DNA from: Eledone cirrhosa
Lineage: Eukaryota
Reading direction: 5' to 3'
Length of the DNA stretch: 64,000 bases
Assembly: GCA_964016885.1 (NCBI GenBank)
Contig: OZ024741.1
Coordinates: forward strand, 289,974,001-290,038,000
The notes below the pieces were generated by a model. It was not told the origin of the DNA and ran no database searches. It was given only the letters and a program-made list of their open reading frames with translations. Positions 5,600 through 63,669 of the stretch are shown one piece after another. The position numbers and the translations under genes were made by a program. The first letter of the stretch is position 1. Each line of letters starts with the position of its first letter.

Positions 5600-5642
5600 G
5601 TAACCTACGCGTTTCATTCTTATTAGAAATCATCAGGATTAC
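5600..5642 (-). ncRNA. Minimal type I hammerhead ribozyme (312-bp unit 1)
   Basis: Minus strand GUAAUC-CUGAUGA-U-UUCU(AAUA)AGAA-U-GAAA-CGC-GUA-GGUUAC; 6-bp stem I; palindromic stem III ACGCGU. Confidence 0.85.
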
Positions 5643-5911
5643 ATATCCAGTGCTTTTATCGAGAACGACACAGCTAGAGACTTATAGAATACTTAGCTGT
5701 GTACAGGAACTGGTTTGAAAGAGCTGTAGCCGGTCCGGCAGAAATTAGAATTTGGATATAATGCTCTGAAATAGCGATATATATGTGAAGACAAACATAG
5801 AATATTCGAAAATATTCTGTATGTTTATAATAAACATTTTGAAGACCCAATCGCTATAGAATAGAATACGTCACGTATTACAATTTGAGATTCTCGATAA
5901 AAGCAAGGGAA

Positions 5912-5954
5912 GTAACCTACGCGTTTCATTCTTATTAGAAATCATCAGGATTAC
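5912..5954 (-). ncRNA. Minimal type I hammerhead ribozyme (312-bp unit 2)
   Basis: Identical to 5600-5642. Confidence 0.85.
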
Positions 5955-6223
5955 ATATCCAGTGCTTTTATCGAGAACGACACAGCTAGAGACTTATAGA
6001 ATACTTAGCTGTGTACAGGAACTGGTTTGAAAGAGCTGTAGCCGGTCCGGCAGAAATTAGAATTTGGATATAATGCTCTGAAATAGCGATATATATGTGA
6101 AGACAAACATAGAATATTCGAAAATATTCTGTATGTTTATAATAAACATTTTGAAGACCCAATCGCTATAGAATAGAATACGTCACGTATTACAATTTGA
6201 GATTCTCGATAAAAGCAAGGGAA

Positions 6224-6266
6224 GTAACCTACGCGTTTCATTCTTATTAGAAATCATCAGGATTAC
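6224..6266 (-). ncRNA. Minimal type I hammerhead ribozyme (312-bp unit 3)
   Basis: Identical to 5600-5642. Confidence 0.85.
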
Positions 6267-7895
6267 ATATCCAGTGCTTTTATCGAGAACGACACAGCTA
6301 GAGACTTATAGAATACTTAGCTGTGTACAGGAACTGGTTTGAAAGAGCGGTAGCCGGTCCGGCAGAAATTAGAATTTGGATATAATGCTCTGAAATAGCG
6401 ATATATATGTGAAGACAAACATAGAATATTCGAATATTCTATGTTTGTCTTCACATATATATCGCTATTTCAGAGCATTATATCCATATATATATATATA
6501 TATATATATATATATATATTTATTAAAATAATCAAATTAAATTAATTCAACAGTTAAACACACAGGAATAATAAAGTTGTTATCAAAGAGCCAGAAGATT
6601 GACAAGACGACCCTAAATATGACTAATTGTTCTACGAAAGCCATGTACGGCACCACAACTTTTAAACTTTGATTTTAAAGTAGGTTTATAATTATTAATT
6701 TCCATAATACTTCCGTGGCTGTCTCGGTAGCCTAGTTGGAGGAATCATAGACGTTGGTAATCCTGGTCTGAGGTTAGATCCTGGTCGGTAGTAGGGTTCG
6801 CGGTAATCCTTTTCAGTTGTTTTCTTTGGGATGTAAAATCAAAACTGAAAAAGATTACATGTACCTCTCGACCAGGATTGAACCCGAGATAAGGATCTCC
6901 ACCTACGAAAGTGTTATGAAAATTCATACTTATAAACCTACTTTCAAAATTTTCAAAACAAAATGATGTGGTGTCGTTCATGTCTTTCTTAATGTTGTTG
7001 CTCCTAATTAAAGTCGACTTCTAACTCATTTGGGTGTTCCATAACCAACATCCTCGTTTTGTTTCTCACGTATCTAGACTATATTTTAAGCTGTAATCGA
7101 TGTTTCATTTCTGTTGGACCTCATTTATCCTCCTCCTACCCCCTCTCTTTTTCTCTCTGTGATATTTTAATCTACTATGATTTGGACTTACCTTATTCAT
7201 ATATATATGTTTTTGCATGTCAGATTGAAACTTACAATCATTGGAATTATATATATATATATATATATATATATATATATATATATATATATATATATAT
7301 ATATATATATATATATATATATTTATATATATATATATATACATATATACATATATATATATACATATATATATACATATATTTATATATATATATATAT
7401 ACATATATACATATATATATACATATATATATACATATATGTATATGTATATATATATATATATATATATATATATATATATATATATATATATATATAT
7501 ACACACCTTTTCTGTTTGTATCTTTTCTACATGTATTACCTTAAATAATATCTTTATATATAATATGCTCAATATTTCACTTTTCACCATTGCTCCTTAT
7601 ACTCTGATTTCTGTAGCAAAACATCTTTTTGTAACTCCTGCGTTTCTATATGATACCACTGACACCGTCAATAGTTATGTATCTATATAAATATTCTGAA
7701 GACTAGGATTTTAATTACCTGTTTAAACATTGTGTATGTTCCGATGATTCCAGACATATTCGTCTCAAGGAAATATTTGTCAGCAATTTTCATTGTTTTA
7801 TATTTTGTATATATATATATATATAAAGAAAAAGATGAAATCGAAAATGCAACTGGAGTCTTATTTTTTTTTTAAATATATATATTTATTTGGTT

Positions 7896-7933
7896 CCTTT
7901 ACCGGTTTCGCAGTTCTTCTGCTTTTCAAAAGG
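7896..7933 (-). ncRNA. Hammerhead U3-A8 variant (inverted copy)
   Basis: Reverse complement of 8009-8046. Confidence 0.7.
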
Positions 7934-8008
7934 TGAGTTGAGATGGAGGGTCTGTGGTTTTTCTCACATCTGATGTGAGAAAAACCATAGACCCTCCATC
8001 TCAACTCA

Positions 8009-8046
8009 CCTTTTGAAAAGCAGAAGAACTGCGAAACCGGTAAAGG
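8009..8046 (+). ncRNA. Hammerhead U3-A8 variant
   Basis: CCUU-UUGAAAA-GCAG(AAGAA)CUGC-GAAA-CCG-GUA-AAGG; palindromic stem III ACCGGU; C3-G8 replaced by U3-A8. Confidence 0.75.
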
Positions 8047-8701
8047 AACCAAATAAATATATATATTTAAAAAAAAAATAAGACTCCAGTTGCATTTTCG
8101 ATTTCATCTCTTTTTCTTTATACTTTCACTCGTGTAGGACACCACGGTTATTTTTCATTTTGTAACAAAAACCTCACTTTCTAATATATATATATATATA
8201 TATATATATATATATATGTGTGTGTGTGTGTGTGTGTGTGTGTGTAAGAGTGTATATATATATATATATATATATATATATATATATATATATACATATA
8301 TATATATATATGTATATATATATATATGTATATGTATGTATATATACATATATATAGATATAGATGTATATATGTATATGTATATATATATATATATATA
8401 TATATATATATATATATATATACACATATATATATGTACATACATATACATATATACATGTATATATATATGTATATAAATATATATATATATATATATA
8501 TATACACATATATATATGTACATACATATACATATATACATGTATATATATATGTATATAAATATATATATATATATATATATATATATATATATATATA
8601 TATATATATATATATATATATATATATATACACCACCTTCACCACTAGTTGTTTTGACAGATGTCTTCAACCCATTGATACCAAACATTATTTGGTCAGT
8701 A

Positions 8702-8892
8702 GGGCGGTGGATTGGCAGTATCGGTAGAGGGTCGGAGGCCATGCTTCGCAGCATAGAGTTACGGCCCTTTATGATCTGAGTTCAATTCCCGCCGAGGTTA
8801 ACTTTGCCTTTCATTCTTACGAGGTCGATAAAATAAAGTACCAGTAATGCACTGGGATAATTGGTGGCCTTGTGCCAAATGTAGAAACAATT
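8702..8892 (+). mobile_element. tRNA-derived SINE family A with TSD
   Basis: A-box TGGCAGTATCGGTAG, B-box GAGTTCAATTCCC; TSD ATTATTTGGTCAGTAG on both sides. Confidence 0.9.
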
Positions 8893-61760: not shown

Positions 61761-61805
61761 AACGATGTACTAGTTTCAAGCTTGTTAGCTATCATCAGCA
61801 CCGTT
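61761..61805 (-). ncRNA. Minimal type I hammerhead (466-bp unit 1)
   Basis: AACGGUG-CUGAUGA-U-AGCU(AACA)AGCU-U-GAAA-CUA-GUA-CAUCGUU; 7-bp stem I; palindromic ACUAGU. Confidence 0.87.
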
Positions 61806-61838
61806 TACCCATCTGCCAGATAGTTGAACGTTCGAAAG

Positions 61839-61886
61839 TATATACTTTCCTTATGAAAATTAACGGCTGAGCAGCCTAATTTGCAT
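61839..61886 (-). promoter_or_regulatory. Putative internal promoter (octamer + TATA), repeated in each unit
   Basis: ATGCAAAT at 61886-61879 and TATATA at 61844-61839; same spacing at 23834-23881. Confidence 0.45.
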
Positions 61887-62226
61887 ATTGAGTGAGTTAA
61901 ATCGGTCAGGCATACCGAAAACGATAAATTGAAACAAAATGAAAACGAAATTTCATTTCTCACTCTTAGTATGGCACTTACTTAAATGTAAGTATGCATG
62001 TATACGTACATACATATATGTATACAGACGTACAGTAGCATGCACATATATATATATATATACATATATATATACATATGCATACAGGTACACATACATA
62101 TATGCACGTATCAGTTTAGCGGCGCTAACGTCGCTTTGTTCGTTTGTAAACAAACTGAACAGCCTGAATTTATGCCATACGGTGTTAAGGCAACCACGTC
62201 ACCTTTTTGTTCAACACTGACACAGG

Positions 62227-62271
62227 AACGATGTACTAGTTTCAAGCTTGTTAGCTATCATCAGCACCGTT
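62227..62271 (-). ncRNA. Minimal type I hammerhead (unit 2)
   Basis: Identical to unit 1. Confidence 0.87.
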
Positions 62272-62692
62272 TACCCATCTGCCAGATAGTTGAACGTTCG
62301 AAAGTATATACTTTCCTTATGAAAATTAACGGCTGAGCAGCCTAATTTGCATATTGAGTGAGTTAAATCGGTCAGGCATACCGAAAACGATAAATTGAAA
62401 CAAAATGAAAACGAAATTTCATTTCTCACTCTTAGTATGGCACTTACTTAAATGTAAGTATGCATGTATACGTACATACATATATGTATACAGACGTACA
62501 GTAGCATGCACATATATATATATATATACATATATATATACATATGCATACAGGTACACATACATATATGCACGTATCAGTTTAGCGGCGCTAACGTCGC
62601 TTTGTTCGTTTGTAAACAAACTGAACAGCCTGAATTTATGCCATACGGTGTTAAGGCAACCACGTCACCTTTTTGTTCAACACTGACACAGG

Positions 62693-62737
62693 AACGATGT
62701 ACTAGTTTCAAGCTTGTTAGCTATCATCAGCACCGTT
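62693..62737 (-). ncRNA. Minimal type I hammerhead (unit 3)
   Basis: Identical to unit 1. Confidence 0.87.
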
Positions 62738-63158
62738 TACCCATCTGCCAGATAGTTGAACGTTCGAAAGTATATACTTTCCTTATGAAAATTAACGGCT
62801 GAGCAGCCTAATTTGCATATTGAGTGAGTTAAATCGGTCAGGCATACCGAAAACGATAAATTGAAACAAAATGAAAACGAAATTTCATTTCTCACTCTTA
62901 GTATGGCACTTACTTAAATGTAAGTATGCATGTATACGTACATACATATATGTATACAGACGTACAGTAGCATGCACATATATATATATATATACATATA
63001 TATATACATATGCATACAGGTACACATACATATATGCACGTATCAGTTTAGCGGCGCTAACGTCGCTTTGTTCGTTTGTAAACAAACTGAACAGCCTGAA
63101 TTTATGCCATACGGTGTTAAGGCAACCACGTCACCTTTTTGTTCAACACTGACACAGG

Positions 63159-63203
63159 AACGATGTACTAGTTTCAAGCTTGTTAGCTATCATCAGCACC
63201 GTT
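63159..63203 (-). ncRNA. Minimal type I hammerhead (unit 4)
   Basis: Identical to unit 1. Confidence 0.87.
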
Positions 63204-63624
63204 TACCCATCTGCCAGATAGTTGAACGTTCGAAAGTATATACTTTCCTTATGAAAATTAACGGCTGAGCAGCCTAATTTGCATATTGAGTGAGTTAAAT
63301 CGGTCAGGCATACCGAAAACGATAAATTGAAACAAAATGAAAACGAAATTTCATTTCTCACTCTTAGTATGGCACTTACTTAAATGTAAGTATGCATGTA
63401 TACGTACATACATATATGTATACAGACGTACAGTAGCATGCACATATATATATATATATACATATATATATACATATGCATACAGGTACACATACATATA
63501 TGCACGTATCAGTTTAGCGGCGCTAACGTCGCTTTGTTCGTTTGTAAACAAACTGAACAGCCTGAATTTATGCCATACGGTGTTAAGGCAACCACGTCAC
63601 CTTTTTGTTCAACACTGACACAGG

Positions 63625-63669
63625 AACGATGTACTAGTTTCAAGCTTGTTAGCTATCATCAGCACCGTT
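63625..63669 (-). ncRNA. Minimal type I hammerhead (unit 5)
   Basis: Identical to unit 1. Confidence 0.87.

Follow-up and report, generated by a model that had tools for sequence, protein, structure and literature searches.

The hammerhead ribozymes of Penelope-like elements (PLEs) are the closest described systems to the motifs reported here, type I hammerheads from a 64,000-nucleotide stretch of the Eledone cirrhosa genome (GenBank assembly GCA_964016885.1, contig OZ024741.1, positions 289,974,001 to 290,038,000 of the forward strand; hereafter the window) whose first pair of stem II, at positions 10.1 and 11.1, reads U·U or C·A. For the minimal hammerheads of PLEs, the main text of Cervera and de la Pena (2014, PMC4209133) describes a highly conserved G10.1-C11.1 preceded by one bulged base. 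The consensus in print is CUGANGAH, with 'a possible extra N10' and 'a possible extra N11' in the descriptor; the figure text gives U..U in the Hydra and D. willistoni entries. File S2 of Craig (2021, PMC8557442) places 25 Hydra-clade families under 'canonical HHR motifs' (HHR, hammerhead ribozyme), 14 of them with U..U as counted here, and the main-text passages on these motifs leave the mismatch without discussion. Natural U10.1-U11.1 hammerheads were described by Perreault (2011, PMC3088659), where U·U is given as the most active mismatch after Ruffner (1990). In the axolotl retrozyme HHR_Amex2, about 60,000 motifs within 350-bp tandem repeats open helix II with U·U; self-cleavage reached 22% in 1 h for the monomer, the dimer being more efficient, and RNA circles were found (Cervera and de la Pena 2020, PMC7229834). 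The U·U opening of stem II is already known, with published activity, and a claim of novelty fails. A sequence-only reading of the window, which the present analysis followed up, had stated that its proposal would fall if the variants were inactive and not enriched in young copies, or were on record already as common in PLE hammerheads; U·U is on record in this way, and C..A appears once in File S2, in PLE-X1_cBra, a Chara element outside the Hydra clade (PMC8557442).

The hammerheads of the window share with the Hydra-clade motifs of that file the type I topology, a short near-palindromic stem III and a 3' position in (TA)n-targeting elements, and with the minimal hammerheads of PMC4209133 the dimer design, the pseudo-long terminal repeat (pLTR) location and the occurrence as inverted pairs. 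They differ from the former in that families may also have C·A, A·A, A·G or U-A as their state and in that stem II extends up to at least 100 nt, with U3-A8, U4C and U4A cores too (U3-A8 and U4C being published hammerhead variants), and from the latter in that G-C is a minority and the one-sided bulge is rare (2/141 sampled matches). In the relevant passages of Perreault (2011, PMC3088659), the mismatch is presented as a rare surprise and not as lineage-wide, and C·A is absent. HHR_Amex2, as described in PMC7229834, is a vertebrate ribozyme of the canonical loop-loop type forming a single U·U family without C·A, and the retrozyme unit range of 170-400 nt given there is exceeded by one unit of the present window, of 466 bp. 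We found no published discussion in which C·A or A·A is treated as an abundant state, which Lunse (2017) and Ruffner (1990) may hold.

Type I hammerheads of the window

A descriptor for type I hammerheads with a relaxed core, which required stems I-III and accepted any base, or a one-sided bulge register, at 10.1/11.1, found 23 motifs in the window versus 3 matches in total over 20 local dinucleotide shuffles. Pairing at 10.2 was a requirement of the descriptor, so the contrast of 10.1·11.1 with the following pairs is partly built in. No Rfam hammerhead family matched the window above its gathering threshold, the G-C hammerheads included; the span 61750-61812 reached 18.5 bits against Hammerhead_HH9 (E 0.029, gathering 52), and a scan of the whole window by E-value gave microRNA models on simple repeats nearly throughout, with no hammerhead among the matches listed. 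The surrounding genome (3.0 Gb) is AT-rich, with many (TA)n and (TG)n repeats.

All ten sites cited in the sequence-only reading are type I hammerheads, two of them as damaged copies; their spans start at most one base from where they had been placed, and, as had been read, stem II opens with U·U or C·A (Table 1). They exhibit, with the U3-A8, U4C and U4A variants described below, the core C3 U4 G5 A6 N7 G8 A9 / G12 A13 A14 / A15.1-U16.1 / H17 and three stems around it with stem I open, and nine of the ten have the short palindromic stem III of the PLE dimer type, which permits a double hammerhead. The consensus at 10.1-11.1, purine-pyrimidine and not strict, is departed from at these sites. 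C·A was confirmed at the three positions proposed for it (47425, 15343 and 50537), which correspond to two families and not to three separate ones, since the hammerheads at 47425 and 15343 are 92% identical over 547 bp.

The sites at 23161 and 13217 were not matched by the descriptor, and their genome relatives show that both are damaged copies of U·U families: U..U is present in 11/11 aligned relatives of the first and is kept at 4/7 other aligned loci of the second. The 23161 family, for which a first look gave 2,790 candidates in the genome, has in 7 of the 11 aligned relatives (L210-L220) a U4A core, CAGAAGA, that departs from the hammerhead consensus. The hammerhead with the U4C core at 42033-42151 has a second copy at genome locus L046 with core and U·U unchanged, and that with the U3-A8 core at 51721-51821 has three further copies of identical state. 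An additional U·U hammerhead at 4717, outside the ten, represents a single-copy state (1/26) in a mostly A-U family. At 60144(+), CUGAAGA stands before two GAAA words, with U..U in a short stem, a candidate that the descriptor rejected.

The mismatch had also been expected to be missed by descriptor searches, which does not hold for the standard PLE descriptor (PMC4209133). An extra N10 and an extra N11 are permitted there, and a hammerhead is not lost to such a search through this mismatch alone; it would be lost through a long stem II or a longer stem III.

Pair 10.1·11.1 across the genome and within families

The same descriptor was applied to 139 evenly spaced 10-kb stretches of the genome, the stretch next to the window being excluded, and returned 141 motifs versus 12 in three shuffles. 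These were 41 U·U and 37 A-U (both tallies being inflated by tandem arrays), 18 G-C, 17 C·A, 7 A·G, 5 G-U, 5 U-A, 4 A·A, 3 A·C and 4 one-sided registers, so that 72 of the 141, about half, have no paired 10.1-11.1. Matches of the window and of the sample were grouped into 42 families, of which three were set aside for their register and one (family 11 of the sample) as low-complexity and probably an artefact. For the remaining 38, with four ties settled arbitrarily, the majority state is a mismatch in 20 (U·U 10, C·A 4, A·A 4, A·G 2) and a pair in 18 (G-C 8, A-U 6, U-A 3, G-U 1). The majority mismatches represent 4 of the 10 possible types, and C-G and U-G did not occur in the families of the window and the sample. 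The idea that pyrimidine-purine Watson-Crick pairs are excluded was ruled out, U-A being the commonest state of the 50537 family.

Family counts were obtained with exact genome-wide patterns, for which reversed-pattern controls gave 0. The 466-bp family has 12,772 genomic matches, of which 11,733 are U·U, 995 lack U at 10.1 and 44 have U at 10.1 with another base at 11.1. Inspection by eye gave 85 C·A among the first 100 non-U matches listed, which extrapolates to about 850, and U-A in 26 of the 44; A at 10.1 was present in none of those 100. In the tree of this family, built with 52 of 76 rows (the other 24, truncated or too distant from the window copy, being left out), 17 C·A rows are located on one side of a branch (91/99), amid U·U rows. 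Divergence averages 0.070 among the C·A rows and 0.038 in the youngest group with U·U, and which of the two states changed into the other is not firm. The cut site is GUU in the C·A lineage (L181-L208) and GUA in the U·U lineage, a link that is absent in other families.

Other families also hold several states. The 312-bp family (9,275 matches) showed 66 U·U and 34 A-U among the first 100 listed, from about 12 loci, and 40/40 full-length scored matches to its window copy were 100% identical. The first 100 matches listed for the 50537 family (8,344 in all) comprised 68 U-A, 22 C·A, 9 A·A and 1 A-U, and A11.1 was present in 99 of the first 100 listed for the 47425 family, whose 10,659 matches are to the 3' half; one further family holds A-U, G-C, G-U, A·C and U·U. 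U·U and C·A are family states and not decay. The mismatch is fixed in families of thousands of copies, which include copies 100% identical on different chromosomes, and this supports the view of the sequence-only reading that the variant is tolerated.

That the variants might be ribozymes which have decayed and lost their activity, and which are passengers of elements with no further need of them, we hold to be very unlikely. The core, the GAAA, stem I and the palindromic stem III are intact over dozens of families with different stems, U·U is borne by the youngest copies, and U·U ribozymes cleave in the published tests (PMC7229834, PMC3088659); such an explanation would fit the two damaged copies among the cited sites, the one-copy U·U change at 4717, and the dispensability of cleavage for insertion in one in vitro PLE system (PMC11167929).

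The length of stem II, 14 nt, is alike in U·U, C·A, A-U and G-C relatives, and this unchanged length between states indicates a substitution at one position. The two bases could also be taken not as a 10.1·11.1 pair but as an extra nucleotide after A9 and another before G12, the next pair being the first of the stem. This is the notation of PMC4209133 and PMC8557442, where the consensus CUGANGAH and the descriptor terms 'extra N10' and 'extra N11' of the former fit it, and G stands at the 5' position in no mismatch family here, in agreement with H. We consider it quite improbable, because G-C, A-U and U-A relatives in equal register have equal stem length and because the next pair is G-C in only 3/21 mismatch families, unlike the conserved G10.1-C11.1 of the bulged PLE hammerheads.

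Two further features of these stems were observed. Pair 4 of stem II is a pyrimidine·pyrimidine mismatch in 9/23 long-stem families (C·C 4, C·U 3, U·C 2), carried in the window by 4717-, 15470-, 47552-, 30634-/31710+, 53301-, 54388-/54458+ and 42042+ and in the sample by loci L036, L048 and L059; it is possibly a tertiary contact site. The families with a U4C core (42042+ in the window; L029, L133, L066 and L046) all have a non-standard first pair (3/3: U·U, A·G, U-A).

Carrier elements

The carriers are likely Hydra-clade PLEs and non-coding tandem repeats derived from them. The frameshifted gene for reverse transcriptase (RT) and endonuclease at 48280-50302 presents within 48283-49038 the CxCx5C linker, the CxxC and the CxH of the endonuclease, all of them marks of Hydra-clade PLEs. 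Its open reading frame (ORF) shares 41% and 34% identity with P0001, where RWK and DKT are present, and its RT piece resembles by eye the Hydra rows of the Craig 2021 alignment. The C·A hammerhead at 47552 lies about 730 nt downstream of the end of the ORF and terminates the element, and the hammerhead copy at 15470 belongs to a truncated, partly inverted copy of the same element. A hammerhead near the 3' end, insertion in (TA)n and inverted pairs, features of the Hydra clade, are all found here, the inverted pairs in the window itself. An ORF is linked to the 47552/15470 family alone; the other hammerhead families are assigned by their design and insertion pattern. A second frameshifted fragment of Hydra type (56562-58087) has no hammerhead 3' of it with the descriptor, and Pfam gave no family for 6/7 frames of the window, the seventh (45259-45654) being part of the unrelated RT fragment described below.

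The 312-bp and 466-bp arrays fit non-LTR (long terminal repeat) retrozymes, as non-coding tandem units of a few hundred bp with one hammerhead each, and a 2026 preprint proposes that retrozymes of this type come from PLEs. The outer 3' ends of the 466-bp family are clustered, 37/56 being located 250-319 nt past an intact cut site (14/56 at 250-259 nt and 23/56 at 290-319 nt), and microsatellite sequence lies beyond 38/56 and 11/13 outer 3' ends. These clustered ends resemble the two-site tail of a PLE (PMC11167929).

Several repeats lie among these elements. An RT fragment at 45259-45657(-), unrelated to PLEs (Pfam RVT_1, E 5.8e-07), is probably from a long interspersed element. A dispersed repeat of about 190 bp, with at least 8 copies in the window that are 83-93% identical, is probably a short interspersed element, and one copy interrupts a PLE remnant at 16390-16979. 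Positions 26481-29023 are occupied by a purine-rich 2.5-kb minisatellite of period 29/127, then (TAG)225.

Table 1. Positions of the hammerheads, their carriers and a dispersed repeat in the window.
Feature	Position	Strand	Details
U·U type I hammerhead	5600-5642	-	U10.1(5629)·U11.1(5616), 4-bp stem II, palindromic stem III
Predicted cut of that hammerhead	after 5606	-	
312-bp tandem array, three U·U hammerheads	5600-5642, 5912-5954, 6224-6266	-	
466-bp tandem array, five identical U·U hammerheads	61761-61805, 62227-62271, 62693-62737, 63159-63203, 63625-63669	-	
U·U hammerheads, inverted pair	54335-54392, 54454-54511	-, +	31-nt stem II, C·C at pair 4
U·U hammerhead, U4C core CCGAUGA	42033-42151	+	82-nt stem II, GUU cut site
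U·U hammerhead, U3-A8 core UUGAAAA	51721-51821	-	74-nt stem II
Damaged copy of U·U family	23161-23209	+	stem II of 3 G-C pairs, hairpin stem III
Damaged copy of old U·U family	13214-13263	+	inverted partner near 13207(-)
C·A hammerhead	47424-47561	-	C10.1(47545)·A11.1(47445), 101-nt stem II, 3' end of broken PLE
C·A hammerhead, second copy of the 47425 family	15342-15479	-	
Inverted partner of 15342-15479	~16972-17109	+	one change in stem III
C·A hammerheads, inverted pair	50454-50514, 50537-50599	-, +	commonest state of the family is U-A
Additional U·U hammerhead (4717)	4660-4725	-	
G-C hammerheads	7929/8013/56088; 30634/31710; 31961		
A-U hammerhead	53301		
Frameshifted RT-endonuclease gene, Hydra-clade PLE	48280-50302	-	YxDD, CxCx5C linker, CxxC, CxH
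Second frameshifted Hydra-type PLE fragment	56562-58087	+	RT thumb and endonuclease
Copies of the ~190-bp repeat	8701-8896, 9320-9511, 16786-16979, 21049-21257, 35162-35345, 35536-35730, 42847-43044, 56449-56640		

Constraint on the first pair of stem II

Pair 10.1·11.1 is probably under a relaxed but bounded constraint in this lineage. With the catalytic core retained, U·U, which was probably inherited, would change into A-U, G-C, C·A, U-A and A·A and back again by drift. The recurrence noticed in the sequence-only reading is real over families, and its description of the hammerheads as unrelated was overstated. Hydra-clade PLE hammerheads have U·U in the majority, and much of the recurrence can therefore be descent. 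Several states were amplified inside families, which is better explained by a tolerance handed down in a single clade than by a selected brake.

Folding was predicted for dimers with the core held open, and the double hammerhead was present in 8/12 of the folds printed, at 0-4.2 kcal/mol above the unconstrained optimum. For the 312-bp family, stem II with the natural A-U is predicted to be 1.4 kcal/mol stabler than with U·U. Two copies are predicted to pair via the palindromic stem III and to cut as dimers. Stem II would close from pair 10.2 on, with the mismatch stacked beneath the sheared A9·G12. In the hammerhead core, a divalent ion is bound by the A9 phosphate and N7 of G10.1, and U and C are without that ligand. 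The sheared A9·G12 pair lies on 10.1-11.1 (PMC11300833). By the published cases, U·U hammerheads would cleave, weakly as monomers and better as dimers; cleavage may be somewhat slower than with G-C, and the C·A and A·A variants might cleave as well. Slower cutting would cost little, the element presumably needing uncut or re-ligated RNA as template. Speed would not be limiting: junctions in the template have to be uncut or re-ligated, and Poseidon RNA with a dead hammerhead was still inserted in one PLE assay in vitro (PMC11167929).

The sequence-only reading had also suggested that the mismatch is selected, perhaps slowing cleavage. As a positively selected brake, it would keep multimeric or circular RNA alive for reverse transcription, and several observations point in this direction: G-C is the majority in only 8/38 families, the C·A lineage of the 466-bp family would have arisen via two changes with a Watson-Crick intermediate that did not spread, uncut or re-ligated junctions are required for the arrays and their 3' ends, and the axolotl U·U ribozyme has a weaker stem II and a stabler stem III (PMC7229834). 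Sister subfamilies with A-U or U-A were, however, amplified too, as seen for the 312-bp A-U arrays and the 50537-family U-A copies beside mismatched ones; the G-C sister of the 466-bp family is likewise in near-identical tandem copies, and a dimer-only brake is already supplied by the palindromic stem III. A selected brake is unlikely in our view. The genome might even be a natural saturation scan of 10.1·11.1, in which C·A and A·A, which lack the G10.1 metal ligand and for which we found no published rates, are active and selected. U·U would then have changed to C·A because retrotransposition from multimeric or circular RNA calls for a lower level of cleavage, which a closing pair outside the Watson-Crick set provides; we doubt this proposal as a whole.

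Several points weigh against a relaxed but bounded constraint at 10.1·11.1, or against the picture of dimer cleavage that accompanies it. The composition would give U·U for 19% of mismatches (P 0.0015 for 10/20) and the six unseen types for 45%, but the families are related and not independent, so that these binomial values are only indicative and their significance is overstated. U·U has outlasted the turnover of the adjoining stems in many families, which could point to a preference beyond tolerance. In the 466-bp family, the single-step Watson-Crick states did not spread (U-A 26), whereas the double change C·A did. Four of the 12 printed dimer folds lack a full double hammerhead. Finally, the insertion ends do not mark the hammerhead cut site: in an anchored comparison, only 2/56 outer 3' ends are at most 20 nt from it and the 5' ends are scattered, their values of -461 and -307 being alignment limits, and the reading of two insertion junctions, each 5-6 nt upstream of a cut site, is ambiguous.

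Since U·U is in print with activity data, the finding changes little and is an ordinary one apart from the abundance of C·A. The useful remainder is quantitative: about half of the sampled hammerheads are unpaired at 10.1-11.1 and the allowed set is narrow. The natural sister units that differ almost only at 10.1·11.1 are ready pairs for asking whether PLE hammerheads are tuned slow, a question that bears on the role of hammerhead ribozymes for PLEs.

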